A program made the translations under genes and the position numbers. A model generated the notes under the pieces. That model searched no databases. It had not been told where the DNA came from and saw nothing but the letters and a program-made list of their open reading frames with translations. Shown piece after piece: positions 7,514-36,399 of a stretch of DNA of 64,000 nt (position 1 is the stretch's first letter; every line of letters begins with the position of its first letter). This DNA comes from an uncultured Chloroflexia bacterium (GTDB taxonomy: Bacteria; Chloroflexota; Anaerolineae; Anaerolineales; UBA4823). Location: NCBI GenBank assembly GCA_963714425.1, contig CAVQOI010000003.1:8062-72061 (forward strand), written 5' to 3'.

Positions 7514-7535
7514 ACCAAATTAGGAGGTCACCCAG

Positions 7536-8792: not shown

Positions 8793-8817
8793 GTGCGTAT
8801 GCCCATTTTCCGGGAGA

Positions 8818-8913
8818 TCCCTCCTCCCCCATTCTAGGGGAGAAGAAGCCTGCCGCCGCGAAGCGCGTACGAACGCAGCGAAGTAGGGCAGGCAGGCCGG
8901 GAGTGGGGGTGGT
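8818..8913. repeat. GC-rich hairpin repeat family member (inside the operon, between the MFS and PLP-enzyme genes)
   Basis: ccctcctccccattctaggggag...aagcctgcc...gggcaggcagg...gggagtgggggtgg. Shares the CCCC/GGGG hairpin + AGCCTGCC..GGCAGG + GGGGTGGG architecture. Confidence 0.65.
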
Positions 8914-8944
8914 AGATACAAGTAGAGAATAATAAGGAGTCACT

Positions 8945-10342: not shown

Positions 10343-10343
10343 C

Positions 10344-11855: not shown

Positions 11856-11914
11856 AATCAAACACCCTGCCCCGCCCGCATGCCTGACAGCTGGCAGGTG
11901 AGAGTAGACCTAAT

Positions 11915-11955
11915 AACAGTTTGCAGATTATTTCCTGCAAACTGTTGTTTTTTTA
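11915..11955 (+). terminator. rho-independent terminator
   Basis: aacagtttgcag / ctgcaaactgtt is a perfect 12-bp stem with an 8-nt loop, followed by a run of T. Confidence 0.8.
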
Positions 11956-12284
11956 TTCTTCTTCAGCCGGTGCTTGCGTCATTCGTCGATGCGCCGGGGT
12001 TGCCATCAGCCAGAAGCCCTACGCCCAGTTGAGTGACCGTATTGAGATGAAATCTTTGTCATCTTGATATCTCGGTAGCAATTATCATCCACTTTTCTTG
12101 TGGAAAGATTCATCATTCAAAACCTATCGATGCCGGGGTCAGCGCGGATATAATAACGGTATCCACCCACATTCCCCCTTGCCTCCCACCATTTTGGAGG
12201 AGGGCAGAGAGTGGGGCGCGGCGTAGCGATCAGTCTTAGCGAGAAAATGATACACATTGCGGATTTCAATTAGGAGAAAAAATC

Positions 12285-16419: not shown

Positions 16420-16718
16420 TGGATAAGTCCTTTCGCAAGCATGAGTGGCGTAATTTTAACATAAACACTCATGGGTTGTAGCTATTCCGAAGACAGGACG
16501 CGTAGGGGCATTTTGGCTGATAGTTCCAGTTTTTGGAGGGGGTTGGGTGATTAATATGATGTCATTCTAAGAATTTCGTTAATCTTACAATCCTGATCGT
16601 ATAAATCACATGTGCCTGAGGCAAACTCTGGTAGAATCCAATCGGACAATTATTCTCAGAATCAAAAAATAATCGCCCTTAGACGTAATAATCGTCGTGG
16701 TTACGAGGAGGTAACATT

Positions 16719-19276: not shown

Positions 19277-19325
19277 CTCGCACTCCGCACCTGAAACATG
19301 GAACTTGGAACCTAGCACCTGGTAC
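19277..19325. repeat. tandem heptamer repeat related to 20-89
   Basis: ctcgcac tccgcac ctgaaac atggaac ttggaac ctagcac ctggtac. Shares the 15-mer cctgaaacatggaac with the window start. Confidence 0.75.
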
Positions 19326-19333
19326 TTTATAAT
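19305..19333 (+). promoter_or_regulatory. sigma70-like promoter TTGGAA-17-TATAAT, probably giving a leaderless radA mRNA
   Basis: TTGGAA at 19305-19310, perfect TATAAT at 19328-19333, 17-nt spacer. The radA ATG (19340) starts 7 nt after the -10 box and has no Shine-Dalgarno. Confidence 0.55.
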
Positions 19334-19339
19334 ATCGAC

Positions 19340-20750
19340 ATGCCCAAAACACACACCCAATTCGTCTGCCAGCAATGCGGTCGCATCACCCCGCAGTACA
19401 TGGGACGCTGCCCGCAATGCAGCTCGTGGAATAGTATGGTCGAGGAGGTGGTGTCTGCGCCCGCCCCCTCCAAACGCCGCCCTGCCCTGGCTGGCCTGGG
19501 AGGGCGCTCCTCCCCGCAGCGTCTTTCTGAGGTCAGCGGCGACGCCGACGAGCGCCTGCCGCTGTCCATTGGCGAGTTTGCCCGCGTGCTGGGCGGCGGG
19601 GTGGTGCCCGGCTCGATCGTGCTCATCGGCGGCGACCCGGGCATCGGCAAGTCCACCCTGCTGCTGCAGGTAGCCCTGGAGAGCGCCCATGATAGCCGCG
19701 TGCTGTACGTTTCGGGGGAGGAGTCTGAGCGGCAGATCAAGATGCGCGCTGCGCGCCTTCTCAAGGACACGGAAGACCGCTCTTTCCCCGACGATCTCTT
19801 CCTGGTCACTGAGACCGACCTGGCCGCCATCCTGGGGCACGTCAGCGAGCTGCAGCCTGCGCTGCTGGTGGTCGATTTCGATCCAGACCACCTCTCTTTC
19901 CGAGCTGGAGTCGTCGGCGGGCTCGGTTTCGCAGGTGCGTGAGTGCGCCTCACGCTTGCGCGAGCTGGCCAAGTCCTCGGGCATTGCCATCTTTCTCATC
20001 GGGCACGTAACGAAGGAGGGGACCATCGCCGGGCCGCGCGTCCTGGAGCACATCGTGGATACCGTGCTGTACCTGGAGGGCGACCGCTTCCAATCCTACC
20101 GGCTGTTGCGCTCGGTCAAGAACCGCTTTGGGGCCACCTCCGAGGTGGGCGTGTTCGAGATGAGCGAGCGCGGTATGGCTGAGGTGCCCAATCCTTCGGA
20201 GGCTTTCCTGGCGGAGCGCTTGGTCAACGCCCCCGGCTCAGCGATTGCTGTGACCATGGAGGGCACGTGCCCGCTGCTGGTGGAAATCCAGGGGCTTACC
20301 AGCCCAACATCCTTTGGCAATCCGCGCCGCACGCCCAACGGCATCGACTTCAACCGCCTGCTGCTGGTGGCGGCGGTGCTCACCCGCCGCATGGGCATAC
20401 GCCTGGGCGAGCAGGATGTGTTTATCAATGTGGTGGGCGGTTTGCAGGTGGACGAGCCCGCCGCCGACCTGGCGGTTGCAGCCGCCATCACCTCCTCGGC
20501 GCGTAATATCGCCGTGCGCGCCGACACGGTGCTGATCGGCGAGGTGGGTCTCTCCGGCGAGCTGCGCATGGTGGGGCACATGCCGGCGCGCCTGCGCGAG
20601 GCCGCCAACCTGGGCTTCAAGACAGCCGTGGTGCCGCGCAGGATGCGCCAGGGCGAGCCCTGGCCCTCAGGCTTGCAGGTGCTGGAAGCGCGCTCGCTCA
20701 AGCAGGCGCTGGAGATGGCGTTTTTGGGGGGGGAAGAGAGTGGGGAGTAG
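19340..20750 (+). pseudogene. radA: DNA repair protein RadA/Sms, reading frame broken by a 1-nt insertion in a TTT run at 19876-19878 (possibly a sequencing error)
   Basis: The N-terminal zinc ribbon (CQQCG...CPQC), the Walker A motif (GGDPGIGKST) and a Lon-like C-terminal domain are all present. The frames join as ...LLVVD|SIQTTSLSELESSAGSVSQVRE (KNRFG follows). Confidence 0.85.
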
Positions 20751-20776
20751 TAATTTGCTTTATCAGAAATAAGGGT

Positions 20777-21034
20777 ATGAAAGAAGAATATGACTCTACC
20801 CAAGGCAAACGTGGGCCGATAGAACCCAGCCCGATGGGCAAAACTCGCATTACCATCCGCCTGGATAATGATCTCCTGGATTCGTTTCGGAATGAGGTTG
20901 ATCTCATGGGCGGTGGGAATTACCAGACCTTGATTAATGACGCTCTTCGGGAGTACGTCCACCAGCATAAAGAGCCGTTGGAAGAGATCCTCCGCCGGAT
21001 AGTGCGTGAGGAGCGCGGTCAATACAGTAAATAA
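20777..21034 (+). CDS. BrnA-family antitoxin-like protein (orphan, no BrnT seen)
   Basis: KTRITIRLDNDLLDSFRNEV..GGNYQTLINDALREYV matches the BrnA/CopG-like pattern. Confidence 0.65.
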   Translation: MKEEYDSTQGKRGPIEPSPMGKTRITIRLDNDLLDSFRNEVDLMGGGNYQTLINDALREYVHQHKEPLEEILRRIVREERGQYSK

Positions 21035-21226
21035 TTTGCCCAGAAGTTATGTTTAATGGATGATCCGGCCGCGGTTTATTCCATGTACCCGCTATCGACT
21101 GCGGGGAACTGTAGCATGAGACGGATGTGAAAGGAGTCCGCGTCTGCTAATGCTTGGCAGGGTTAATTTGTTTAATCTCGACTGAAGCGAGCGAATATTA
21201 CGGATACATGAATGAAGGGATGACCA

Positions 21227-21970
21227 ATGCAATTATCTGCGCAAGCCTGGATGGAAATTTCGTTCAACATAGCTTATCTGCTCGCGATATGGGGGCTGGT
21301 TGCCGCTATGCAGCTCCGCAACCGCCAGCTTGGAACGCGCCAGCGCCGGCTCAGGGCGATGTTTATCGCCGCGTTTGCTCTGCTGGCGTTGGGTGACACC
21401 GGGCACGTGGGCTTTCGCGTGCTCGCCTACTTTCAGGGGGCTTCGCTTTCTGCCAACCTGGCTGGGGACGGGCTTGGACTGGTTGGTCTGGGCGCCCTGG
21501 CGACTGCCGTCACGGTGACCTTCTTTTACGCGATCATGCTCCTGATCTGGCAGCAGCGCTTTAGCAGACCCCTGGGCTGGCTGGGATGGTTGCTCATCCT
21601 CTCAGCTGTGCTGCGGCTGGCGCTGATGCTCTTCCCCGAAAATCAATGGAATAACACCATCCCGCCACAGCCCTGGTCGCTGTACCGCAACCTGCCGCTG
21701 GTGATCCAGGGGTTGGGAGTAGCTTATCTCATCCTGCGCGACGCAAGGTCGAGCGGCGACCATGCGTTCCAATGGATCGGCATGATGGTCCTGGTTTCTT
21801 TTGCCTTCTACCTGCCTGTGATCCTGTGGGTACAGCGCCTGCCGGCTATCGGCATGTTGATGATCCCAAAGACCCTGGCATATGTCGCCATTGCGGTGAT
21901 CGCATACCGCAACCTCTTTCTCGCCCCACAGCGACCTGGCATCGCAGCGCCTGTTCAATCTGAGATCTGA
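21227..21970 (+). CDS. hypothetical polytopic membrane protein (about 7 TM)
   Basis: Seven hydrophobic segments. No recognisable family motif. Confidence 0.55.
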   Translation: MQLSAQAWMEISFNIAYLLAIWGLVAAMQLRNRQLGTRQRRLRAMFIAAFALLALGDTGHVGFRVLAYFQGASLSANLAGDGLGLVGLGALATAVTVTFFYAIMLLIWQQRFSRPLGWLGWLLILSAVLRLALMLFPENQWNNTIPPQPWSLYRNLPLVIQGLGVAYLILRDARSSGDHAFQWIGMMVLVSFAFYLPVILWVQRLPAIGMLMIPKTLAYVAIAVIAYRNLFLAPQRPGIAAPVQSEI

Positions 21971-21997
21971 TCGAGCGTAAAGCGGATTGTCGATCGA

Positions 21998-22915
21998 ATG
22001 TCCCTGGATATTGTTACCGGCTCCTTCGGCTACATCGGGCGGGCCATCACACGCCAATTGCTGGATTCCGGCAGGCAGGTGCGCACCGTCACCGCCCATC
22101 CGGGCAAGCCCAGCCCTTTTGGCGACAGGGTCGATGCACACCTCTTCAACTTCGATAAGCCAGAGCGGCTGGTTGCTTCCTTGCAAGGCGCAGAGACGCT
22201 CTACAATACCTACTGGATCCGCTTCCCGTACGGCGGGGCGACCTTCGAGGGCGCTGTCCAGAACACGAAGATATTGTTCGACTGCGCCCGGCGCGCCGGG
22301 GTGCGCAAGATTGTGCACATCAGCGTCACCCAGGCCTCCGAGTCATCCCCATTACCCTATTACCGCGGCAAGGCGCAGCAAGAGCAAGCGCTGATTGAAA
22401 CAGGCGTCGAGTACGCCATCGTCAGGCCGACGCTGGTCTTCGGGCAGGGCGATATCCTGGTCAACAACATGGCCTGGCTGCTGCGCCGCTTCCCACTCTT
22501 CCCCATCTTCGGCTCGCGGGAGTATACCCTGCAGCCTGTGCATGTGGATGACGTCGCCGCCCTGGCGATCGCCAGCACTGCAGCCGGAGGACGTCAGGTG
22601 CTGGACGCTGCCGGCCCGGAGACATTTACCTTTGAAGCTTTTATCCGTTTGATGGCGTCTGCCTTGGGAAGCCCCTCCATGCTTGTCCACCTCCCGCCGG
22701 GTTTGGGTATCACCCTGGGCAGGCTCATCGGCTTGTTCATCGGCGATGTGATCTTGACCCGCGACGAGCTGGAGGGGCTGATGGCGAGCCTTCTGGTCTC
22801 ATCCGATCCACCTTTAGGAAAGACGCTCTTTTCGGAGTGGCTGCGCCGGCAGGCAGACAATCTGGGGAAGGAGTACGCTTCGGAGTTGCGCAGGCATTTT
22901 CGTTGGAAGCCGTGA
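21998..22915 (+). CDS. NAD(P)H-binding SDR-family protein (NmrA/atypical SDR-like)
   Basis: N-terminal VTGSFGYIGRAI Rossmann motif. 305 aa. Confidence 0.75.
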   Translation: MSLDIVTGSFGYIGRAITRQLLDSGRQVRTVTAHPGKPSPFGDRVDAHLFNFDKPERLVASLQGAETLYNTYWIRFPYGGATFEGAVQNTKILFDCARRAGVRKIVHISVTQASESSPLPYYRGKAQQEQALIETGVEYAIVRPTLVFGQGDILVNNMAWLLRRFPLFPIFGSREYTLQPVHVDDVAALAIASTAAGGRQVLDAAGPETFTFEAFIRLMASALGSPSMLVHLPPGLGITLGRLIGLFIGDVILTRDELEGLMASLLVSSDPPLGKTLFSEWLRRQADNLGKEYASELRRHFRWKP

Positions 22916-23006
22916 TCCGCCAGCACCTGGCGCGTTTGACCGAGGAGCAGAAGCCTTCTATAATGAAGACGAACGGGAGGGGTATAGCCGGAAAGGAGAT
23001 AATCAT

Positions 23007-23309
23007 ATGAGTCCTGATTTAAACAACAGCGGTCCTGACAGCAAGCCGGCGAGCATGCTCGGAGCATGGATCGCCATCGGGGCGGGACTGGGGGTTGCCC
23101 TGGGAGTTGTCTTCGACAGCATTGCGCTGGGGATCGCCATGGGAGTATCCATTGGCGTGGCGATTGGGGCCAGCGTAGATCGCTCCCGCAAGACTGAGGG
23201 TGAGCAAATATCCGGGGGAGGACAGCGCCTCCTCTATGTTGGATTGGGTTTGGGGCTGCTCGTCGGTCTTGTTGTCCTGGTTGCTTTCTTGCTACTGAAG
23301 GCAAGTTAA
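23007..23309 (+). CDS. small glycine-zipper membrane protein
   Basis: GAWIAIGAGLGVALGVVF..GIAMGVSIGVAIGASV plus a C-terminal TM. RBS ggaaaggag is upstream. Confidence 0.5.
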   Translation: MSPDLNNSGPDSKPASMLGAWIAIGAGLGVALGVVFDSIALGIAMGVSIGVAIGASVDRSRKTEGEQISGGGQRLLYVGLGLGLLVGLVVLVAFLLLKAS

Positions 23310-23335
23310 CACCTTCCGCTGCCAAGGTCTGTCAG

Positions 23336-24163
23336 ATGAGCGCGATGGCGTCTGCACCTAAAGAAAAAATTCACCTCAAAGCAGAGCAGGAGACCCTGCT
23401 CATCACCTTGTATTCCAAGGCAGTAAATGTCCCGGCTGGGCTCCCCCGTGGCTCCAAAGCCCGCCAGATCCTCGAGCAGCTCGAGTATGATTTCTCTGCC
23501 TTGCGCGTCCCGCTGGGGACGCGGCTGACGGTCTGCCTGCGCGCCATGAAGCTGGATGATATCGCCCGGGACTTTCTGCATGATCTCCCAGATTGTGTGG
23601 TGCTCCATCTTGGCTGTGGCCTGGACAACCGCTTCCAGCGTGTGGACAACGGCCGCGTCGAATGGTACGACCTGGATCTTCCGGACGTCATCGCTCTGCG
23701 CCGCCGTTTCTACGAGGAGTGCGAACGCTGCCACATGATCGCTTCGTCGGTCACCGATCTTGAGTGGACCCGCTTTGTCTCGGCTCAGGGGCGTCCTGTA
23801 CTGGTGATCGCCGAGGGGTTACTGATGTACTTGGAAGAGCCAGATATAAAAGCCTTGCTGCTTAAGCTGCAAGCTGAATACCCGGGATGCTCCCTGGCTT
23901 TCGACGCCTACAGCCCGCAGGTGGTGCGGCGCATCTCAGCGCACCCATCCATCCAGCGCACAGGGGCGACCATCCAGTGGGGGATCGATGACGCCAGACA
24001 GATCGAAGCCTGGGGCGAGGGCATTCGCTTGAATGAGGAGTGGTATTTCGACCAATCCCAGGCCATCGCTCGACTGGCTTTCGGCTACCGCTTGGTGTTT
24101 GCCCTCGCTGCTCTCTTCCCAGCCGCCCGCAAAGCGCACCGCATTCTGCATTTTAACCTCTAA
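23336..24163 (+). CDS. class I SAM-dependent methyltransferase, TcmP/LCM-like O-methyltransferase family
   Basis: VVLHLGCGLDNRFQRV...WYDLDLPDVIALRRRF pattern typical of the tetracenomycin TcmP-like family (from memory). Confidence 0.7.
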   Translation: MSAMASAPKEKIHLKAEQETLLITLYSKAVNVPAGLPRGSKARQILEQLEYDFSALRVPLGTRLTVCLRAMKLDDIARDFLHDLPDCVVLHLGCGLDNRFQRVDNGRVEWYDLDLPDVIALRRRFYEECERCHMIASSVTDLEWTRFVSAQGRPVLVIAEGLLMYLEEPDIKALLLKLQAEYPGCSLAFDAYSPQVVRRISAHPSIQRTGATIQWGIDDARQIEAWGEGIRLNEEWYFDQSQAIARLAFGYRLVFALAALFPAARKAHRILHFNL

Positions 24164-24287
24164 GCAATCTCCGCGTCCTGGTGGTCTGGGGGGCGATGGA
24201 TTTACGTTTGTAACCATTTGTCGGGTCAAGCGTAGACCATAGCGGGGCTGACTGATAGATCATACGGGCAATGCATACCTTGAGGAG

Positions 24288-25166
24288 ATGGATATGAACA
24301 AATATCTCGGTTTATTTTTGGCTTTGTTGCTGGGTTTCTCCATGGCATGCCGCCTGGTCACGGCCCCTTTGGAGTCAGTCGGCGTCCTGCGCGGTTCGGG
24401 CGAGATCGTGCGTGAGACCCGCCAGGTTAGCGGGTTCGATGAGATCGACGTTTGCTGTGGCATGCAGCTCACCCTCACCCAGGGCGATACAGAGTCTCTC
24501 GAGATCGAAGCAGACGACAACCTGCTGCCTGAGATCCTCTCCTCGGTAACGGCTGACAAGCTGGCCATCCGCTTCAGAGATGAAATCGGCAGTGCGCGAT
24601 ACCTGCCCAGCCAGCCGGTACGATTGCGGATCAGCGCACGAGACATCCAGAGCCTGGATATCTCTGGAGGCGGCAGCCTGAGAGCGACAAACATCGAGAC
24701 TAACAGCCTGAGCATTGGGCTGAGCGGTGGCAGCCGTGCAGCTCTCGGCCGTGTCGCAGCAAATTCTCTGGATGTGGGTATATCCGGCGGCGGGGAGTTC
24801 TCTGCTCAGGTGCTCTCACTCTCCAGCCTCGACCTCGGCTTGAGCGGTGGGAGTAGAGTCACCATCGACTCGATGACTGCCGATACCCTGTCTCTGGGAG
24901 CCAGCGGGGGTGGTAAGTTGACCGTCAACGGCAGCCTCCGTGAGGAAGACATCAGCTGGAGCGGCGGCGGAAGCTACCTGGCGGGAGACCTGGAGAGCGA
25001 AACCGCCTCCATCTCCATGTCAGGTGGCGGGGAAGCCTGGTTGTGGGTGACCAACTCACTCATAGTAGACCTGAGCGGTGGGGCGCAGGTCGCATATTAT
25101 GGCAGACCGTTGATCGAGCAGAGCCTTACTGGCGGCAGTACCCTGGATAGTCTGGGTGAGCGTTAA
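24288..25166 (+). CDS. DUF2807 (GIN-domain, adhesin-head-like) lipoprotein
   Basis: Signal peptide + Cys (LLLGFSMAC). Repeated (L/I)SGGGS beta-helix-like units. GFDEIDV start motif. Confidence 0.7.
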   Translation: MDMNKYLGLFLALLLGFSMACRLVTAPLESVGVLRGSGEIVRETRQVSGFDEIDVCCGMQLTLTQGDTESLEIEADDNLLPEILSSVTADKLAIRFRDEIGSARYLPSQPVRLRISARDIQSLDISGGGSLRATNIETNSLSIGLSGGSRAALGRVAANSLDVGISGGGEFSAQVLSLSSLDLGLSGGSRVTIDSMTADTLSLGASGGGKLTVNGSLREEDISWSGGGSYLAGDLESETASISMSGGGEAWLWVTNSLIVDLSGGAQVAYYGRPLIEQSLTGGSTLDSLGER

Positions 25167-25357
25167 GAAATTTGGGTTAGGTGGACGGCAACGCCGCCTA
25201 CCTATCTAGGACTATAGTCCTCATTGACGTTTCGTGGGGGAATGTAATACAATTGCAACTATTCTATAATGATCTAAATTATCTGAATTCTCCCCTCGGG
25301 GCAGAATTCTGATTTGGATTTAGACATCGCAAACATCATCACAGGAGCAGCCCCTTT

Positions 25358-26827
25358 ATGACCTCTATTCCAAAATCAACCCAGATCCTCGTCATCGGCG
25401 GTGGACCTGGAGGATCTACGGCCGCCACATTGCTTGCCCGCCAGGGGCTCAATGTTGTCGTGCTTGAGCAAGCCCGTTTTCCGCGTTACCACATTGGTGA
25501 ATCATTATTGCCCTCCGTACTTCCGGTGCTCGACCTGTTGGGGGCGCGCGAAAAATTCGAAGCCCACGGGTTCGTACGCAAACAGGGCGCCTTCCTGGAG
25601 TGGGGGCGCGAGCGCTGGCCTCTCAACTTCGGCGAGCTGAGCGGCAGCTCCACGTATGCTTTCCAGGTCGTACGCTCCGAATTTGACCAGCTGCTTCTAG
25701 ACCATTCCCGCAGCCAGGGCGCCCAGGCATTTGAAGGCGTCGAAGTGCGCAGCATCACGTTCGACGGTCCCCGTCCGGTGTCCGCAAACTGGCGCAGGGT
25801 AGGCGAGAATGGTCATGCGCCGGAAGAGGGTGAGATCGCCTTCGAGCACCTGATCGATGCCTCCGGGCGCAACAGCTTGATGGCAACCCGCTACCTGCGC
25901 AACCGTAACTATCACAAGATCTTTCAAAACGTCGCCCTTTGGGCTTACTGGGAGGGCGCAGACCGGCTAGCAACGGGTAGAGAGGGAGATATTGCCGTCA
26001 GCTCGATCGCCGATGGCTGGCTTTGGGCTATCCCGCTGCATGACGGCACGATGAGCGTGGGCGTGGTGATGCACAAGGATACATTAACCGAGAGGCGGGC
26101 CGAGGGGCTGGAAGCGATCTACCAGCAGGCGATCGACAACTCTCCCCTGGTGAAAAAGATCTTGCGCTCGGCGGAGTGTGTCTCCTCCATCCACACAGAG
26201 ACCGATTACTCTTATGCATCGGAAAAATTCTGTGGACCGGGATACTTCCTGGTGGGGGATGCTGCCTGTTTCCTGGATCCGCTGCTCTCCAGCGGTGTAC
26301 ATTTGGCGACCTTCAGCGCCATGCTGGCAGCTGCCAGCCTCTCCAGCCTGTATCACGGGGAGGTGGGCGAGCAAGAGATGGGCGCTTTCTACGAAACCAG
26401 CTATCGTCAGGCCTACCTGCGCTTCCTGGTTTTCCTCTCGGCTTTCTACGACGTGGGTCGTCCAAAAGAGTCCTATTTCTGGGAGGCGCAGCGTGTCACC
26501 CAGGAGGAGGTGAGCGCCAGCGAGTTAAAGCGCGCCTTCCTCAAGCTGGTGACGGGTCTTAAGGATATGAGCGACGCTTCCACCTCCGAGGCGCGCCATT
26601 ACGTCCTGAATGAGATGACCCGTAGGGTGGATGAGAACCTGAAATTCCGCAAGGACAAGATGGCCCTGGCATCCCTGGAGGGCGAGCAAGAGGCGGCGGC
26701 GCGAGCCAATGCGCGCTTCTTCACTTCGGTGGAAGGGATGTTCTCGTTGGACCAAGAGGATGCTGTCGAAGGGCTGTATGTCGTCACGGAGCCGCGGCTC
26801 AGACTGGAGCGCGTTCCACGGGGATAA
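25358..26827 (+). CDS. flavin-dependent halogenase family protein
   Basis: GGGPGGS FAD motif. GWLWAIPL (the WxWxIP halogenase hallmark). FVRKQGAFLEW carries the candidate catalytic Lys. GDAACFLDPLLSSGVH. Confidence 0.75.
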   Translation: MTSIPKSTQILVIGGGPGGSTAATLLARQGLNVVVLEQARFPRYHIGESLLPSVLPVLDLLGAREKFEAHGFVRKQGAFLEWGRERWPLNFGELSGSSTYAFQVVRSEFDQLLLDHSRSQGAQAFEGVEVRSITFDGPRPVSANWRRVGENGHAPEEGEIAFEHLIDASGRNSLMATRYLRNRNYHKIFQNVALWAYWEGADRLATGREGDIAVSSIADGWLWAIPLHDGTMSVGVVMHKDTLTERRAEGLEAIYQQAIDNSPLVKKILRSAECVSSIHTETDYSYASEKFCGPGYFLVGDAACFLDPLLSSGVHLATFSAMLAAASLSSLYHGEVGEQEMGAFYETSYRQAYLRFLVFLSAFYDVGRPKESYFWEAQRVTQEEVSASELKRAFLKLVTGLKDMSDASTSEARHYVLNEMTRRVDENLKFRKDKMALASLEGEQEAAARANARFFTSVEGMFSLDQEDAVEGLYVVTEPRLRLERVPRG

Positions 26828-26957
26828 CGCCTCATCGTGAGGGGAAATCGAAGTCCACTCTTTCCCGGCACGCGCTGGGATTTGTTGTCCTATTGCAGCC
26901 GAGTGCTGAATTGAGTATACTTGCTTCTGAGCCCGGAAGGCGGGCTCAGGCAAGCCA

Positions 26958-28106
26958 ATGAAGAAGATCCTAACATCCCAACGGCTGGCAGATGCGCTCG
27001 TTTTAAGTCTGGGCATCGCTCTGGCGATCGCTGTTCGCCTGAGCTTGCGCCTGTTCCTATCCCAGGATTACCTGGGCGAACTCGGTGGGTGGTACGATAC
27101 GCTGCGCAATCAAGGCTTTGCTGCCATCGGTACGGATTTCTCCAATTACACCCCTGCCTACCTCTATCTGCTCTACCTGGTCTCGATCCTTGCTCCTACG
27201 GTCTATTCTTTCACCGCGGTCAAGATCCCACCCATGCTGTTCGATTTTATTACAGCCTGGTTTGTCTACCGCATAGTCGCTGTTCGCTTTAAGAACAGCC
27301 CCCTCCCCGTATTCGCCTTCTTCGCCGTGTTGTTCGCACCGACGATCATCTTGAACAGCTCTATGTGGGGGCAGTTCGAAAGCATTTACACCGCCATGCT
27401 CGTCGCCTGTATCTACTTCATCACTCAGCGGCGAGACACCGCAGCTTCCCTGGCGTTCGGCGTGGCAATCTCTATCAAGCTACAGGCGATCTTCCTGCTC
27501 CCCTTTCTCCTGGCGTTGGTTGTCAAGGGTCGTCTCTCCTGGAAAAGCCTGATCTGGATTCCGCTGGTGTTCCTGGTGAGCCTGGTCCCCGCCTGGATTG
27601 CCGGACGCCCCCTGGGAGAGCTTGCCACGATTTACCTCTTGCAAACCCAGCGCGATGCCAGCTTGACGATCAACGCCCCCAGCGTGTACGCCTGGCTGCC
27701 GGAAAAAGCATACGACTTGTTCTTGCCCGCTGGAATCATTTGGGCTGCTTGCCTGGTTTTCGGGTATATCTTCGTGATTTGGAAAAGCCGGGCGTCACTG
27801 CATGATGGCCTGCTCATCAAGCTAGGATTACTCTCGCTGATACTGGTTCCCTTTGTCCTCCCAAAAATGCACGAGCGCTATTTCTACCCGATGGATGTGC
27901 TCTCAATCGCGTACGCTTTTTTCTACCCCAGGCATTATTACGTGCCCATCGCCTTTAACCTGATCTCTTTTTTCACTTACCTGCCCTTCCTCTATATGTG
28001 GCGCGCCTTTACCATGCCCTATCTGGCGCTGGGCATGCTTGTCCTGCTGGTGTTGATTGCCCGCAGCGCGGTCTTGGAGCTGTATGCTCAGGGTGAGGGT
28101 GCTTGA
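26958..28106 (+). CDS. GT-C fold membrane glycosyl/mannosyltransferase-like protein
   Basis: 382 aa with about 10 TM segments. DFSNYTPAYLYLL and HERYFYP are reminiscent of Gpi18/DUF2029-type mannosyltransferases. Confidence 0.6.
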   Translation: MKKILTSQRLADALVLSLGIALAIAVRLSLRLFLSQDYLGELGGWYDTLRNQGFAAIGTDFSNYTPAYLYLLYLVSILAPTVYSFTAVKIPPMLFDFITAWFVYRIVAVRFKNSPLPVFAFFAVLFAPTIILNSSMWGQFESIYTAMLVACIYFITQRRDTAASLAFGVAISIKLQAIFLLPFLLALVVKGRLSWKSLIWIPLVFLVSLVPAWIAGRPLGELATIYLLQTQRDASLTINAPSVYAWLPEKAYDLFLPAGIIWAACLVFGYIFVIWKSRASLHDGLLIKLGLLSLILVPFVLPKMHERYFYPMDVLSIAYAFFYPRHYYVPIAFNLISFFTYLPFLYMWRAFTMPYLALGMLVLLVLIARSAVLELYAQGEGA

Positions 28107-28542
28107 CAGAAAATGGGGAGGTATTTCTCTGGCTGGTCGTTCTCTTATCGGTAAGCTGAAGCTCAAGCCCGGACAGAGGGCCGCCCTCGTGAACCAACCA
28201 CAGGGCTATCTGGAATCGCTCGGGCAATTGCCGGAAGGGGTGCAGCTCTCTCAGCAGTTGCAGGGGGTATTCGATTGGGTGCAGGTCTTCATCCGCACGA
28301 GGGTGGAGCTGGATGAAATCGCCCCTCGGTTGGTTGCCGCTCTCAAGCCAGAGAGCCTCTTGTGGATCTCCTTTCCCAAAGGCACATCCAAGATCCAAAC
28401 CGACCTGACCCGCGACCAGGGCTGGGAGAGCCTGGAGGGGGCTGGCTTGAAGTGGACCAACCTGGTCTCGATAGACGGCACCTGGTCGGCCTTCTCCCTG
28501 CGCCCTTACAAGCCCGGCGAAAAGCGCCAATCCTTCCGCTAG
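28084..28542 (+). CDS. DUF3052-like hypothetical protein
   Basis: LIGKLKLKPGQRAALVNQPQGY...LLWISFPKG pattern. The start is uncertain (ATG 28084 overlaps the upstream gene; no clean start after GGGGAGG at about 28115). Confidence 0.5.
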   Translation: MLRVRVLDRKWGGISLAGRSLIGKLKLKPGQRAALVNQPQGYLESLGQLPEGVQLSQQLQGVFDWVQVFIRTRVELDEIAPRLVAALKPESLLWISFPKGTSKIQTDLTRDQGWESLEGAGLKWTNLVSIDGTWSAFSLRPYKPGEKRQSFR

Positions 28543-28615
28543 TTTGCGGTTCCCTTTCTCTTCTGATAACCAATCACGATGTTGCTCCACGCAATAATGT
28601 GTTATATATCCACGC

Positions 28616-29560
28616 GTGAGAATTCGCGCCCTCGCTATTTCGTTTCTGCTGCTCTGGATCGCGCCCCTCTCAGCAACGGTCGCTGCAACTCGGAGTCAAG
28701 CAACCCCACACACAGCATTGGTTTTTGCGGTCACCGCCGATATGCGCCAGTTTGCCGGGCCGGGAACTTACGATAGCTCCCAGTATTTCCGAGGAGCTGT
28801 AGAAGCCATCGCCGCCCACGGTCCCGGCGCCTTCATGGTCAGCCCAGGCGATATTGACCCGCCAGCAAGCGTGCTGTGGACCATCACACAGACCCTGGGG
28901 AGCAGCTACACCTGGTATCCGGTGGCGGGCAACCACGAGACCGAGACCCCAGCCGATATGGACTGGCTGCGCCAGTACGATTATGGCCTGGTCAACCCGG
29001 GTCCGAGCGGGTGCCCGGAGACTACCTATTCCTACGACTTCGGGAATGCGCACTTTGTCATGTTAAACGAGTATTGTGATACAGCTGGCGATACAGTTAC
29101 AGATGGCGACATCCCGGATCACCTGTATAACTGGCTGGTTGCTGACCTGCAAGCCACGTCACAAATGCACGTTTTCGTATTCGGTCACGAGCCGGCTTTC
29201 CCCCAACCAGATGCAGACAATGGGCGGTTGCGCCACGAAACCGACAGCCTGAACGCCCATCCCATCAATCGCGATCGATTTTGGAATTTACTCACGGATC
29301 AGGGCGTGGTTGCTTATATCTGCGGGCACACGCACAATTACAGCCTGGCGCACATCGATGGCGTCTGGCAGCTGGATGTAGGCCATTCCAGAGGCCTCGG
29401 CGATACAGGAGCGCGCAGCACCTTTGTTTTGATCAATATCGATGGGAGGCGGGTCGCTTACCAGACCTACCGCGACGATGCCAGCGGTGGGGTCTATACC
29501 TTGACCCATGTCGGCAACCTGGCTAGAGAGCCAATCTACCTGCCGGTGGTTGCCGATTGA
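28616..29560 (+). CDS. secreted calcineurin-like metallophosphoesterase
   Basis: Signal peptide, then the GDID, GNHE and GHTHNY motifs. Confidence 0.75.
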   Translation: MRIRALAISFLLLWIAPLSATVAATRSQATPHTALVFAVTADMRQFAGPGTYDSSQYFRGAVEAIAAHGPGAFMVSPGDIDPPASVLWTITQTLGSSYTWYPVAGNHETETPADMDWLRQYDYGLVNPGPSGCPETTYSYDFGNAHFVMLNEYCDTAGDTVTDGDIPDHLYNWLVADLQATSQMHVFVFGHEPAFPQPDADNGRLRHETDSLNAHPINRDRFWNLLTDQGVVAYICGHTHNYSLAHIDGVWQLDVGHSRGLGDTGARSTFVLINIDGRRVAYQTYRDDASGGVYTLTHVGNLAREPIYLPVVAD

Positions 29561-29570
29561 CTGCTTCCAA

Positions 29571-30740
29571 TCAGCGGGCGGTTGAAGCCAGGATCCTGAG
29601 CAATTTGGGAACGAATCTGAACGGTACAGCCCCAGCAGTTGCTTGGTCTACGCTCCCGCACAGATACACATCCAGCTCCGGGCAGAAGAACAACCAAGTA
29701 CCAGTCGATCCGGTGTGACCGATCACGGCTGGAATCGAATATGGGAGCGTGAACGCCCGTGGCAGGCGGAAGCGCATCAACCCCAACCCATATTCAATTG
29801 GCCAGCCTGGGGAGCGCAGCGCAGCTGCATCCAGTGGAAACCCGAAGCGGTTCCAGCGCTGCTGCATCAAGCTGAGTGTTGTTGGGTAATCGAAAACCTC
29901 GGCCCGGGTGAGCGCACGCAAGAACGCCAGCAGGTCAGCGGCTGTGCTGTATAGATCACCAAACGATTGCATCGCCATGGGCAGGACGAGTGGTTGGCTT
30001 TCGACCCAGACGGTCGCCGGCTCGGACGTGGCCTCCAGCGGGGCTTGCCCTGGATGAAAAGTATGGCGCAGGTTCAACGGTCGGAATAACTGTTCGTCGA
30101 ATACCTGGTGCAGCGGTTTTTCGTGAAGCGTTTCGATGATGGCAATTAACAACTGGAAGTTGGTATCCGAATAACGCGTCTTATTGCCTTTCGCCTCGAG
30201 AGGTTGCGGTGGGAAATGGGGACTGAGCTGGTCGCGGATGATTTGAGTCACGTCCTCAATGCGCAATGCCCTGTCACCCCCACGAAAGAGTTGTTCAATC
30301 AAGCTCTCCCCACCCTTTGGGCGATCTTCAAGCCAATCCGCAAGTCCCGAGGTATGGCTTAGCAGGTGCTGGATGGTGATGGCGTTTGTGTAGTCGACTC
30401 CACCCATCCGGTGAATCCCGGAGATCAGTGACTGCGGGAGATACCTCGAAATCGGTTTGTCAAGATGGAGCAAGCCGCGCTCGTGCAGTTTCAGGATAAC
30501 GACAGCGATGTACAGCTTTGTCACACTGGCGATAAAGAAGGGGGTGTCTTCGTGCATTAGCGTGCCATCCGGGTTCGCCTCGCCCGCCGCGCCTATCCAG
30601 CGGAGCGACCTGTCGCCGCTCTCGACGGCAACAATCGCGTGCTTTACATGCTTTTGCGACAGGAGACTGTCTAGTTGAGCCTGTAACTGCTCGATTACAG
30701 CGCCCTTCCCAGCCGGCTTCTTCGCATCTTTTACTGGCAT
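29571..30740 (-). CDS. serine hydrolase, beta-lactamase/PBP4* (class C fold) family
   Basis: FFIASVTKLY contains the SxxK motif. 389 aa. Confidence 0.85.
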   Translation of the reverse strand: MPVKDAKKPAGKGAVIEQLQAQLDSLLSQKHVKHAIVAVESGDRSLRWIGAAGEANPDGTLMHEDTPFFIASVTKLYIAVVILKLHERGLLHLDKPISRYLPQSLISGIHRMGGVDYTNAITIQHLLSHTSGLADWLEDRPKGGESLIEQLFRGGDRALRIEDVTQIIRDQLSPHFPPQPLEAKGNKTRYSDTNFQLLIAIIETLHEKPLHQVFDEQLFRPLNLRHTFHPGQAPLEATSEPATVWVESQPLVLPMAMQSFGDLYSTAADLLAFLRALTRAEVFDYPTTLSLMQQRWNRFGFPLDAAALRSPGWPIEYGLGLMRFRLPRAFTLPYSIPAVIGHTGSTGTWLFFCPELDVYLCGSVDQATAGAVPFRFVPKLLRILASTAR

Positions 30741-31011
30741 GTGTGCCTCCTGTAGTGAGAGGTGTTTCTATCGCCTGCTTGGGCATATCCAATACTATAG
30801 CCCAATCTTGATTGTTCCCAAAACCCTGAACCGATGCTCACAACGGTACGCTTATTTTACAATAGGAATTCGACCTTGATCATGAGGATGTAGATTTCCT
30901 TACTTTTCTCTATACAAAATCTACCTAAACCTACATTGAAATCCCTGGCAAATTCTGATACATTCGAGCATAATTGCTAAACACCCAATTCTGCCTGCCC
31001 TGGGATCGTTC

Positions 31012-33087: not shown

Positions 33088-33110
33088 TGCCCCCACTCCT
33101 TAGACAATTT

Positions 33111-33175
33111 TCCCCCTTCCCTTTAGGGAAGTGGGGATCTAAGCCTGCCAAAGGCAGGAAGGGCGGATGGATGAG
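33111..33175. repeat. GC-rich hairpin repeat family member
   Basis: tcccccttccctttagggaagtgggga..aagcctgccaaaggcaggaagggcggatggatgag. Confidence 0.7.
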
Positions 33176-33256
33176 CGTAAATATACTGAATAACTTTCCC
33201 CGAACCTCGTTGCGAAGCTAGGAGTCTGGCAAAAGCTCAGCTAAAAGGAGTCATCC

Positions 33257-33982
33257 ATGCACTACATCCCTCTCTTTTCCACCCTGGTCACTTTTATTTT
33301 TGTTGTTGCGGTGTTGAACCGCTACCGCTACAAGCATGGGCAGCATCTGTTGTTGTGGGGCATCGGACTGGTCTTCTACGGCTTTGGCACGCTCTCGGAG
33401 GTGATCCTGGGCTTCACCTTTAGCGCATGGGTGCTGAAGCTGTGGTATTTGAGCGGCGCCATGCTCACCGCCGCCTGGCTCGGGCAGGGGACCATCTTCC
33501 TGCTGGTGCGCCGCAGAGGGGTGGCGATGGGGTCGGCGATTGGGCTGGCTCTGATCTCGCTGGTCTCCTTGGTCTTGATTGTGGCGGCGCCTCTGACTAC
33601 TGCCGCGGCGGCTTACGACGTCAGCCAGCCCATATCCATCCAATACAAGGACGTTCTCACACGTGGCGGGGGGATCATCTTCCTGACTATCCTCCTGAAC
33701 CTCTACGGCACTCTCGGTCTGGTGGGCGGGGCGCTGTACTCAGCCTACCTGTTCTGGCGCAAGCGCGTCCTGGCAGACCGCATGCTGGGCAATATCCTCA
33801 TCGCCGCCGGGGCGCTGATGCCCGCCATGGCTGGCTCGTTCCTGCAGGCTGGTTTAGCCGACTGGCTGTACGCCAGCGAGCTGCTGGGGGTGATCCTGAT
33901 GTACCTGGGCTTCTTGCGCGCCACCGCCGTCGCCGCTCGTCGGGCAGGAGGCTGCGGCGGTCGCCAGGTAGGAATTTTGTAA
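33257..33982 (+). CDS. hypothetical polytopic membrane protein; the 3' end lies inside direct repeat A
   Basis: 241 aa with about 7 TM segments. The last ~30 codons are duplicated at 35682-35796. Confidence 0.6.
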   Translation: MHYIPLFSTLVTFIFVVAVLNRYRYKHGQHLLLWGIGLVFYGFGTLSEVILGFTFSAWVLKLWYLSGAMLTAAWLGQGTIFLLVRRRGVAMGSAIGLALISLVSLVLIVAAPLTTAAAAYDVSQPISIQYKDVLTRGGGIIFLTILLNLYGTLGLVGGALYSAYLFWRKRVLADRMLGNILIAAGALMPAMAGSFLQAGLADWLYASELLGVILMYLGFLRATAVAARRAGGCGGRQVGIL

Positions 33983-34011
33983 CGCGAAGGCACAGAAGAG
34001 CGAATACCGCC
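33894..34011 (+). repeat. direct repeat A (~118 nt) flanking the RAYT insertion
   Basis: By hand alignment with 35682-35796, the first ~75 nt differ only by a 2-nt indel and one substitution. The remainder is more diverged. Confidence 0.8.
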
Positions 34012-34264
34012 AAATGTTATTTAGAAGCCATTCGCGGCATTCGCGTTGAAAGAAGTTTTTTTCTCAGGAAATTCAGAATCGGGGTTAGTTAGCTCTCACC
34101 AATTTCCCGGCAGAGATGACAATTGGCACTTGAACCGAGGGGTTGGTTTTGCTATGATGTATGGAGCATTCCATGCTGGTTGGGTAGAGCACCGCCTCCA
34201 AACCACGAAGCCCCGGTAGGTTGGGTTGAGCTCCGCTTTACCCAACGATTGAGCGAAGCACATA

Positions 34265-34414
34265 TATTCCAATCCTGTGCATCACGGATTGGTACAGCGG
34301 GTGGTTGAATGGCCATGGTCGAGTTTTCACAAGTACATCAAAAAGGGGTATTATGAGAATGGATGGGGAGAGGCGCTTGGGGAGGATGTGAGCAGGATGG
34401 GCTGCGGGGAGTGA
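34265..34414 (+). pseudogene. 3' fragment of a REP-associated tyrosine transposase (RAYT) gene
   Basis: Encodes NPVHHGLVQRVVEWPWSSFHKYIKKGYYENGWGEALGEDVSRMGCGE*. Highly similar at the nucleotide level to 35405-35549. No N-terminal part is present. Confidence 0.75.
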
Positions 34415-34419
34415 AGGTT

Positions 34420-34440
34420 GGTGTGGTCTGCGTCCACACC
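34420..34440. repeat. REP-like hairpin downstream of the RAYT fragment
   Basis: ggtgtgg tctgcgt ccacacc. Confidence 0.65.
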
Positions 34441-34616
34441 TTACGACTTATGATGAAGTGGTATTGAATATACCTAGTGAATTCAAATGGACCCTGATCC
34501 CAGCATTGTTATCAGTTTTTGAAAAACCATAACAAGCTTGATCAGTAAACGAATTTTTAGATGCGTTCGAATAGGAACATTAATGGATAGTAAGATTCGA
34601 ATGATTTGAATATTGT

Positions 34617-34946
34617 TTGCTATTTGACAATGGTGAAGGAGTTAGATGTCGAAATAATATGATGCGATCAATTGGCATATTAGCATGTTTCATAATTCTG
34701 CCATTTCTTTTTTACCTGCTTTTACGACATCCAAGAATCACTCAACGCGGTTTCGCCTTATGGGGGGCAGCAATTTTTGGATTGTTTTTTCTGGCTTTAG
34801 TACTTATTGCGGCTCCCCGCCCACCGCGTGACACAATTATCATCGGAGTGACCCTTTGTATTTCTAACTTCCTAATTGGGATTCCTATCACATATTTTAT
34901 GTATTCAATGATTCGCTCTCTCCGAGAGAAAATTCGTAAGTCGTAG
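34617..34946 (+). CDS. small membrane protein in an AT-rich segment (likely start MMRSIG at 34659)
   Basis: Three hydrophobic segments. Composition is clearly AT-richer than the surroundings. Followed by a GGTGCGG-tttta-CCGCACC hairpin at 34948-34968. Confidence 0.45.
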   Translation: MLFDNGEGVRCRNNMMRSIGILACFIILPFLFYLLLRHPRITQRGFALWGAAIFGLFFLALVLIAAPRPPRDTIIIGVTLCISNFLIGIPITYFMYSMIRSLREKIRKS

Positions 34947-34996
34947 GGTGCGGTTTTACCGCACCATCCTTTCATTATCCAATATAATTTCAAGAA

Positions 34997-35549
34997 ATGC
35001 CTGAATACCGTCGATTATTTATCTGAGGGCGGCACATACTTTTTCACCGTGGTTACCTACCACCGCCTGCCTATATTGACTTCTTCTCAAGCCAGAGCCC
35101 TGTTGCGCGCTGCCTGGCAGAATGTGCGCCAACGATTCCCTTGCAGCATCGATGCCGTTTGCCTGCTGCCTGATCACATCCATGCCATTTGGACACTGCC
35201 CGAGGAAGATGCGGATTATTCCAAACGCTGGGGAGAGATAAAAAGGCTGTTTACCAAAGGCTATTTAGATCAAATTGGACCTGGGGGAACTCGAAACCAA
35301 TCGCGCAGGCGGCGGGGCGAAGCTGCCATCTGGCAGCCACGATTTTGGGAGCACGCCATCCGGGGTGGGGCGGATCTGAACCGGCATCGAGATTACGTCC
35401 ATTACAACCCTGTGAAGCACGGATTGGTACGGAGGGTGGTTGAATGGCCATGGTCGAGTTTTCACAAGTACGTCAAGATGGGGTATTATGAGAATGGATG
35501 GGGAGAAGCGCTTGGGGAGGATGTGAGCAGGATGGGCTGTGGGGAGTGA
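34997..35549 (+). pseudogene. REP-associated tyrosine transposase (RAYT, IS200/IS605-like Y1), N-terminus frameshifted at about 35024
   Basis: MPEYRRLFI (ATG 34997) stops at TGA 35024. The +1 frame continues EGGTYFFTVVTYHRLPIL...LPDHIHAIWTLPE (HUH)...RFWEH..YVHYNPVKHGLV..WPWSSFH (catalytic Tyr region). Confidence 0.8.
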
Positions 35550-35554
35550 AGGTT

Positions 35555-35575
35555 GGTGTGGTCTGCGACCACACC
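35555..35575. repeat. REP-like hairpin downstream of RAYT
   Basis: ggtgtggtc tgc gaccacacc, a perfect 9-bp stem. Confidence 0.7.
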
Positions 35576-35681
35576 CTACGACTTAAGCTAAATGAGAGGT
35601 GGACCTGTGGCAAGAAATAAGCGCCTTTACATCTTGTTGCTGGGTTTGGTGTTAGTGGTCTTGTGTGGATTCTCCGTTTTT

Positions 35682-35796
35682 TCCTGATGTACCTGGGCTT
35701 CTTGCGCGCCACCGCCGTCCGCTCGTCGGGCAGGAGGTTGCGGCGGTCGCCAGGTAAAGATCTTGTAACACGAAGGCGCAGAACGCGAAAACCGCC
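35682..35796 (+). repeat. direct repeat B (partner of 33894-34011)
   Basis: See repeat A. The 2-nt deletion relative to A would frameshift the duplicated gene end. Confidence 0.8.
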
Positions 35797-35913
35797 TGCG
35801 CGTCGCGTGGACATGTGTCTCCTTTAAGCTTCCTGGCGAGAAGCCGTTAGCGGAAGAGTTCGGGGGTCTGTATGCAAAAAATCTGCCCCCTGCGCTGAGA
35901 TCGGATAAGCCCC

Positions 35914-35939: not shown

Positions 35940-36251
35940 TTAGATCACCGGCACGCCTTCTAACTTGTCCTGGTTCGCCTGAACCTCATCGGTGACCACG
36001 ATCTCTTTCTCCCCCGCTTTTGTCAGGCGCACCGAGGCGCCCACTTCGAAGGTGCCCGCCAGGTAGGGCACACGTGACCCCGCCACATATCGCCTGCCGG
36101 ACTTGATGCGCTCGACGAGCGTCTTGCGGTCGTAGATCAGGTAATCCGTGAACACGGCCCCGCGCCGCTCGAACAGGCGCACCCAATCGATCTCTCCGTT
36201 TGACTTGTAGCGCACGGCCTCTACCACCCCGTCGTATTTCACCTTGGCCAT
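35940..36251 (-). CDS. hypothetical 103-aa protein
   Basis: ORF 35940..36308 with the start taken at MAKVKYDGVVEAV (36251). No family recognised. Confidence 0.5.
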   Translation of the reverse strand: MAKVKYDGVVEAVRYKSNGEIDWVRLFERRGAVFTDYLIYDRKTLVERIKSGRRYVAGSRVPYLAGTFEVGASVRLTKAGEKEIVVTDEVQANQDKLEGVPVI

Positions 36252-36325
36252 CGGCTGCTCTCCCTGGCGCCAGATTGTGCTGTGCGGGCGGCATAGCCGC
36301 CCGCACAATCATTCTTCTCTTCCTG

Positions 36326-36399
36326 TCGGGGCGGGCGGACTTGAACCGCCGGCCCCCGCGTCCCAAACGCGGTGCGCTACCGGACTGCGCTACGCCCCG
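36326..36399 (-). tRNA. tRNA-Pro (anticodon UGG)
   Basis: The reverse complement folds by hand as a cloverleaf: acceptor CGGGGCG/CGCCCCG, D stem GCGC/GCGC, anticodon stem CCGCG/CGCGG with loop TTTGGGA, T stem GGCGG/CCGCC with TTCAAGT. 74 nt, no encoded CCA. Confidence 0.9.

Follow-up and report, generated by a model that had tools for sequence, protein, structure and literature searches.

A low-GC RAYT-REP islet bracketed by a repeated gene end in an Anaerolineales genome

Background

REP-associated tyrosine transposases (RAYTs) are HUH/Y1 single-strand DNA endonuclease-transposases that bind GTAG-tagged hairpins, the repetitive extragenic palindromes (REPs), and cut beside them. To our knowledge, RAYTs make no target duplications. 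Here we describe a RAYT locus of an uncultured Anaerolineales bacterium, found in a stretch of 64,000 nt ("the window": contig CAVQOI010000003.1, positions 8,062 to 72,061, assembly GCA_963714425.1). An islet carrying one full-length RAYT gene, the remnant of another and a small cargo gene lies 3' of a gene for a conserved membrane protein, called geneA below, and is bracketed by two copies of the end of that gene, A1 and A2. Most likely, the bracketing repeat is the scar of ordinary recombination at a locus that is variable, rather than the mark of a mobile element of a new kind.

The closest described systems are those that combine RAYT/TnpA_REP with REPs and bacterial interspersed mosaic elements (REP-BIME), as for E. 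coli YafM (4ER8), and the RAYT/REPIN systems of Pseudomonas. The locus has the same protein motifs, a RAYT of about 180 aa and the same GTAG-tagged inverted hairpins; such tagged palindromes reportedly form a described superfamily (PMC3733652). In contrast to RAYT/REPIN systems, the three REPs of the local type present in the 64 kb all lie at the locus, with no dispersed population visible in the window. One RAYT copy is possibly frameshifted and the other truncated, a REP of a second family accompanies them, and the whole occupies a low-GC islet instead of a stable chromosomal position.

Elements of the IS200/IS605 family (IS608, ISDra2) share the HUH/Y1 superfamily, the subterminal hairpins and the absence of a target duplication. 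Their left and right ends are distinct, whereas the ends found here are REPs that are inverted and symmetrical; the protein belongs to the RAYT equivalog of NCBIfam, and multiple identical copies were not seen.

RAYTs number about two per replicon, with 7.7% recently duplicated, and those of Group 4 are common in Cyanobacteria and Caldilineae (Bertels et al. 2017, PMC5581495). The statement in an initial annotation of this DNA that RAYTs are normally single-copy was thus too strong. The present locus is a further example, from Anaerolineales, of the classical RAYT-REP architecture and its GTAG-tagged inverted hairpins. It illustrates RAYT units that pile up and decay in a hypervariable intergenic spot, as opposed to a single stable domesticated gene, and the entry of foreign DNA can be read from the footprint left in its duplicated gene end. 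No new mechanism is opened by the islet.

The duplicated gene end

Copy A1 (33894-34010, + strand), which consists of the final 89 nt of geneA and about 30 nt 3' of the gene, was found in a repeat scan to recur in direct orientation, 1.8 kb away, as A2 (35682-35797, + strand). The latter is an orphan, 5'-truncated gene end followed by DNA of native GC content. The initial annotation had located this repeat, like the other features for which it gave coordinates, to within a few bases. By BLASTN the two copies are 91.3% identical over 104 nt (E=1.5e-31), and no third copy was detected by the same method in the 64-kb window. They match perfectly over 38 nt (33894-33931 and 35682-35719). From there to position 33970 the alignment shows one substitution and an indel of 2 nt, in agreement with what had been noted for the first ~75 nt; the last 40 nt contain 9 differences.

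geneA itself (33257-33982, + strand) encodes a conserved multi-pass membrane protein of 241 aa with 3072 homologues and no match to a Pfam or NCBIfam family. Its nearest non-self homologue is 80-81% identical over residues 1-225, and the source names of the homologues point to Anaerolineales. The annotated tail of the protein (window 33921-33982, ending ...AVAARRAGGCGGRQVGIL before the stop) is unlike the tails of relatives. What resembles these is the +1 frame of A1 (PPPSPLVGQEAAAVAR / ...PLVGQEAAAVAR, each followed by a stop), which ends at 33968-33970 and can be compared, for example, with the tail ...REAVAATSAR of the homologue P0002. The end of geneA therefore appears to have been frameshifted near 33931.

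The stop codon of the +1 frame is kept at the same place in both copies, as TAG in A1 and TAA in A2. Two difference events fall in the first 77 nt, which run up to this stop, and 9 in the remaining 40 nt, a clustering that escaped the initial annotation and that departs from uniform neutral decay with a binomial P of 0.002-0.01. This clustering after the stop codon of what would be the ancestral frame gives A1 and A2 the look of two alleles of the gene end that diverged while each was part of a working gene. Each copy can in addition form a terminator-like hairpin with the sequence to its right, which is not the same for the two, though with weak folding statistics; across the right boundary of A2 the fold has a z of -3.2 as DNA and of -0.9 as RNA.

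The islet and its proposed origin

The interior of the structure (34011-35681, 1.67 kb) is horizontally acquired DNA. Its foreign composition, remarked upon from the outset, is plain: at 47.1% GC it is the lowest such stretch in the window (mean 58%, standard deviation 2.6), and the DNA to the right of A2 is native-like (59.8% GC). The outer junctions are abrupt and lie at least 100 nt from any REP. A repeat scan gave neither terminal inverted repeats nor REPs at 34010/34011 and 35681/35682. There is no short target duplication of fixed length, the bracketing repeats being ~116 nt long and 91% identical. No recombinase gene was found between 33.9 and 36.4 kb, where inspection of the open reading frames (ORFs) and Pfam and NCBIfam scans returned the RAYT alone. 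A tRNA gene aside (see below), Rfam models match nothing even at E<=1. Compared with phages the islet has no match, and compared with plasmids only weak matches to the RAYT gene.

Because the outer junctions bear no transposition signature, recombination or integration, which had already been favoured over classical transposition, is still the best reading. We infer a donor and a route as follows, and hold it to be about an even bet that the islet came from a related strain by homologous plus illegitimate (or Campbell-type) recombination. The donor fragment would have carried the geneA of that strain, its own terminator region and a RAYT cluster downstream. On one side it would have recombined into the resident gene by homology, within or 5' of the gene end; on the other it would have been joined illegitimately at 35681/35682. 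Such a route would be homology-facilitated illegitimate recombination; the product would look no different if a circular copy had been inserted by a single crossover of the Campbell type. The outcome would be a working gene ending in A1, then the foreign islet, and after it the resident end A2, displaced and followed by the resident downstream DNA. The RAYT would have had no catalytic part in the acquisition.

Described insertions of the homology-facilitated illegitimate or Campbell type likewise consist of foreign-composition DNA with a homologous gene segment at one side, are bracketed by direct repeats of that segment and have no transposon ends. They differ from the present case in that the event is here read from structure, the microhomology of the illegitimate joint, the donor and the empty site being unobserved.

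Several points weigh against this proposal. A join that falls inside the homologous anchor and so yields a duplication instead of a deletion is not what homology-facilitated illegitimate recombination most commonly produces. The nested order A1-R1-R2-A2 (R1 being the truncated RAYT and R2 the corresponding part of the full copy) requires at least one further event for the truncated RAYT. The allele argument depends on 11 differences between A1 and A2, and their clustering becomes marginal (P=0.04-0.10) if A1 alone was under constraint. The hairpin evidence is weak when the sequences are folded as RNA. Lastly, apart from the gene's own sequence, a collection of 5.8 billion proteins contains no geneA homologue above 81% identity, and neither the empty site nor the donor arrangement was seen.

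The geneA locus in relatives

A query of metagenomes with the membrane protein provided 50 loci for comparison. Across these ~50 related loci (designated by L numbers) the gene order is MerR-like regulator, ~48-aa protein, geneA, DUF6391, holA. The first three are found in this order in the window as well, but the window has neither DUF6391 nor holA. Homology of the window to all relatives stops at ~33928, that is, inside A1. In the closest clade (L001, L088-L091, L103 and L134; 77-81% identity) DUF6391 is likewise not found downstream of geneA. Since the DNA 3' of geneA is mutually unrelated among these closest relatives, the comparison of loci shows this flank to be a hypervariable spot. In none of the 50 loci is there a RAYT at the corresponding place or a second copy of the gene end, and none contains DNA resembling the cargo, the right flank or the spacers s1 and s2 of the islet.

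In L001 the region 3' of geneA (6854-12121) is occupied by a diversity-generating retroelement with RVT_1, bAvd and a NACHT/FGE-sulfatase target protein. L099 (8675-9531) and L101 (1737-2578) carry a related insert of ~850 nt between geneA and DUF6391, a further sign that the geneA-DUF6391 spot accepts insertions. On the other side of geneA, directly 5' of the gene, lies one copy of a ~90-nt intergenic repeat arranged around the palindrome CCCTTCCCTTnAGGGAAGGGG. The two copies, at 1195-1295 and 33090-33190 of the window, have 81% column identity.

The variability of the site brings to mind the islands that enter the 3' ends of genes. Like such islands, with their attL/attR and surrogate gene end, the locus has direct repeats of a gene end, a perfect core and a restored frame. 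The islet could then be what is left of an integrative element that targeted the 3' end of geneA and supplied a surrogate end, A1 and A2 representing attL and attR with a 38-nt core, after its integrase and most of its cargo had been lost through deletion. A perfect 38-nt block that gives way to diverged sequence, the restoration of a functional gene end and the variability of the site in relatives, including the retroelement cassette of L001, all fit this scheme. However, gene-3'-end islands come with an integrase, whereas no recombinase gene is found in or beside the islet, which is moreover a mere 1.7 kb long. The similarity between the copies runs ~40 nt beyond the stop codon and the coding sequence, which a surrogate end would not need, and the duplicated gene end occurs in no relative. 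We regard this origin as improbable.

The gene for tRNA-Pro(TGG) (36325-36399, - strand; tRNA scan) lies near the islet, and the initial annotation had attached significance to this proximity. It is probably incidental, because a gene of native GC content intervenes and because the window contains no copy of the 3' end of the tRNA. The intervening gene (35940-36251, - strand; taken from the ORF list) specifies 103 aa, is of native composition and matches no family. As an integration site the tRNA-Pro gene was rejected: there is no att-like repeat of the tRNA in the window, where a search that allowed up to 3 mismatches gave no second match to its 3' half.

The RAYT gene and its REP hairpins

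The initial annotation had listed, in order, a 3' RAYT fragment (R1), an AT-rich small membrane ORF and a full RAYT gene between the repeats. All three were found. The full-length gene (34997-35549, + strand) has 183 codons and one extra T at 35024 (ATC-T-GAG), which shifts the frame after codon 9 from the start ATG at 34997. When the extra T is left out, the product is a RAYT of 183 aa that matches 183-aa homologues end to end, almost all close homologues being of that length. Nearest to it is P0121, which is 94% identical and uninterrupted and reads MPEYRRLFIEGG at the site of the extra T. The best match in a scan of a genome collection is 67% identical.

Both the HUH motif (DHIHAIW) and the tyrosine motif (YVHYNPV) are present. 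The protein scores 186 bits against the NCBIfam model NF047646 REP_Tyr_transpos, for which the cut-off is 80, and matches E. coli TnpA_REP (4ER8) with E=2e-40, DHIH and Y-x-x-x-NP being aligned. Its match to Pfam Y1_Tnp is weak. It deviates at 2 of the 70 family columns that are at least 95% conserved, which is inside the range of its homologues. Since the motifs, the curated family score and the inverted GTAG hairpins (see below) all agree, the full gene is by these marks a bona fide REP-associated tyrosine transposase of a known family. The presence of the motifs and the shift after codon 9 had been recognized at the start, but the frameshift is perhaps an assembly error, as the genes for ClpC and RadA are also frameshifted: the 1-nt insertion may represent either real inactivation or such an error. 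Programmed +1 frameshifting (AUC UGA G) was considered and rejected, there being no slippery re-pairing and no upstream Shine-Dalgarno-like element, and P0121 being uninterrupted. R114P, one of the two deviating residues, was likewise dismissed as a defect of the protein, for E. coli TnpA_REP also reads QPRFWEH.

REPs in inverted orientation stand on either side of the gene. The left one (34937-34965, + strand; inverted-repeat scan and folding) reads TAAGTC-GTAG-GGTGCGGT-ttt-ACCGCACC, and the right one (35555-35588, - strand; pattern search) GTAG-GGTGTGGTC-gca-GACCACACC with a TAAGTC flank. The TAAGTC flank is thus found on both. Hairpin and tag take up 34943-34965 (+) on the left and 35555-35579 (-) on the right, for which the chance expectation is zero, and the two form an inverted repeat of 18 nt with 94% complementarity. 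The left REP has a dG of -10.3 and a z of -4.25. The same layout, [GTAG-hairpin]-RAYT-[hairpin-CTAC], surrounds related RAYTs in L085, L086 and L005. In its layout, this pair of inverted GTAG hairpins around a RAYT is the classical RAYT/REP arrangement.

The hairpin behind the full RAYT, GGTGTGGTC-TGC-GACCACACC (35555-35575), recurs with one mismatch 3' of R1 (34420-34440); the chance expectation for such matches is zero. The initial annotation had rightly pointed out a hairpin behind each RAYT copy, but it gave the two as the same and overlooked the inverted upstream REP (34943-34965). With its flank, the degenerate REP of R1 (34420-34453, - strand; pattern search) has one stem mismatch and a GTAA tag in place of GTAG. 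These two and the left REP are the three of the local type that a pattern search of the window detected, and the pattern has no match in viral contigs. Also missed at first was a second type of GTAG hairpin (GTAG-GTTGGGT...ACCCAAC; 34216-34246, + strand; pattern search), located 12 nt 5' of R1. Hairpins of this second type also flank RAYT genes in the cyanobacterial and deltaproteobacterial loci L043, L059, L063 and L084.

Related palindromes occur elsewhere. In L086 (7830-7963) two tandem REP doublets of REPIN-like appearance lie directly 5' of the RAYT, with a double-tagged palindrome (GTAG...CTAC) 3' of it. A third GTAG palindrome, GTAG-GGGCAGG-nTTTAT-GCCTGCCC, is present in the window at 572-596 and 1120-1144, each time right after an ORF, and may be a dispersed REP family of the genome. 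A palindrome similar to this GGGCAGG type is found in L138 (335-358), 5' of a homologue of the cargo gene.

The truncated RAYT

R1 (34259-34414, + strand) is a 5'-truncated RAYT remnant that retains residues 133-183 and the stop codon. Its coding part (34259-34411) is 80% identical over 51 aa to P0121 (tblastn, E=3.6e-30), with which no further RAYT sequence was detected 5' of R1. The motif around the catalytic tyrosine is changed (HIYSNPV versus YVHYNPV in the full copy). At the DNA level the repeat scan pairs 34266-34457 with 35401-35592 (92% over 192 nt), and BLASTN gives 93.8% over 177 nt (E=4e-72). The repeated segment comprises the 3' end of the RAYT and the hairpin behind it.

The codons of R1 and R2 differ by 5 synonymous and 8 non-synonymous changes; half of the latter (4/8) affect codons 1-4 of R1, where it is truncated. 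The outer edge of the REP unit is also the exact limit of the similarity between the two. Because of this sharp limit and of the codon differences, R1 and the full copy are, to judge from their sequences, remnants of two separately evolved RAYT-REP units. A fresh tandem partial duplication does not agree with these observations.

The likeness of the two repeat pairs bears on another explanation, in which the duplication arose within the genome. The islet would already have been in place 3' of geneA when 116 nt of the gene end were copied locally, and this copy would since have decayed. Either 33894-35681 might have been duplicated in tandem and the second copy then largely deleted, or the copy might have been laid down as a templated patch during repair. 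A1 and A2 are indeed in direct orientation and 1.8 kb apart, and the A pair (91%) and the R pair (94%) are similarly diverged, which could mean that they are of one age. Work by Shyamala et al. from 1990 is said to describe REP-rich regions as join points for duplications in enterobacteria, which would count in favour of a local copy. Such a history, however, requires two coincident events, its join points lie away from the REPs, the differences between A1 and A2 are unevenly spread, and the foreign composition of the interior is left unexplained. We consider a local origin unlikely.

The cargo gene and the spacers

The segment between the two RAYT units (34454-34936) is 37.5% GC, against 58% for the window. 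It holds most of an intact ORF (34659-34946, + strand; taken from the ORF list and followed by a homologue search) for a 95-aa protein predicted to be a three-helix membrane protein. The TAG stop codon of this cargo gene is the TAG of the GTAG tag of the next REP. Among 1.84 billion representative proteins 7 relatives are found at E<=1e-3, the best with 45% identity (E=1e-13), and there is no match to a Pfam or NCBIfam family. The family is very rare; its members are three-helix membrane proteins of ~90-120 aa and share the conserved motif LL(R/Q)xP(R/N)xT(R/Q)RxFA. One homologue (L138, 468-788) is encoded between GTAG palindromes, and another (L139, 1532-1843) is encoded beside a ParA-like gene with no REP nearby.

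Could the RAYT itself have moved the islet? The cassette might have travelled as a single-strand circle, or flanking DNA might have been transduced, with the duplication as the result. An almost intact RAYT with both of its REP ends is at hand, and the cargo homologue of L138 also stands between GTAG-tagged palindromes. Yet the outer junctions are at least 100 nt removed from any REP, the REPs bracket the RAYT gene and not the whole 1.7 kb, the homologue of L139 is without a nearby REP, and HUH/Y1 transposition proceeds without target duplication, as is established for IS200/IS605. Mobility catalysed by the RAYT is therefore highly improbable. A very slim chance is left for a related idea, in which the 1.79-kb unit, made up of a surrogate gene end, the REPs, the RAYT and the small membrane-protein gene, would be a minimal integrative cassette that enters and leaves the 3' end of geneA as a circle, the RAYT/REP system supplying the circle or the small gene being mobilised between REPs. 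If true, this would amount to an autonomous, cargo-carrying lifestyle of a RAYT, so far undescribed.

Two spacers make up the margins of the islet. Spacer s1 (34011-34258, + strand) is 48.8% GC and, by BLASTN, unique in the window. It may hold the right arm of a terminator-like hairpin, since 34040-34047 pairs with 33981-33988 and a run of seven T follows (34056-34062), albeit with weak z-scores. Spacer s2 (35589-35681, + strand; read directly from the sequence) is 44% GC and contains a hydrophobic ORF of 26 codons (VARNKRLYILLLGLVLVVLCGFSVFS). This ORF runs from a GTG at 35607 to a TGA at 35687, so that its stop is inside A2, and a Shine-Dalgarno-like GAGAGGTGGA lies upstream. No similarity to s2 was found by BLASTN in the window or in the related loci.

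Quality of the assembly

Two other genes of the window are interrupted. The gene for a ClpC-like ATPase (16692-19225) is split near 18560, where one base is missing in the RRRPYS motif; positions 1-73 and 72-165 of the Pfam AAA_2 model are matched in different frames. In RadA (19316-20747) an extra T near 19877 breaks the frame. Both interruptions point to indel errors of the assembly or, failing that, to real pseudogenes. The two frameshifts make single-base indel errors plausible in this assembly, and the extra T of the RAYT, the out-of-frame tail of geneA and part of the 2-nt indel between A1 and A2 may not be biological. Such indel problems bear on any pseudogene call in the window.

Errors of assembly might also lie at the root of the whole structure. 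Two strains, or a chromosome and a 1.79-kb circle, could have been threaded together via the shared block of 37-38 nt, in which case there would be no integrated form as such. The assembly is of metagenome style, with evident single-base errors in ClpC and RadA, and an empty site plus a circle constitutes an exact alternative path through the 38-nt shared node. Against this, identity between the two copies reaches only 91%, and current assemblers finish with k-mers or overlaps longer than the perfect block. In addition, the junction of s2 with A2 must exist in real molecules under either path, and the contig is reported to be 222 kb long. An artefact of this sort has, in our estimate, little likelihood. 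For annotation the locus is of use on three counts: it contains the orphaned end of a gene, what may be a pseudogene, and a gene for a rare small membrane protein.

A further difference in synteny is found upstream of the islet. In the window ~10 kb (20750-31000) separate RadA from the gene for a PucC-like transporter, and L004 has only a Dus gene at that place.

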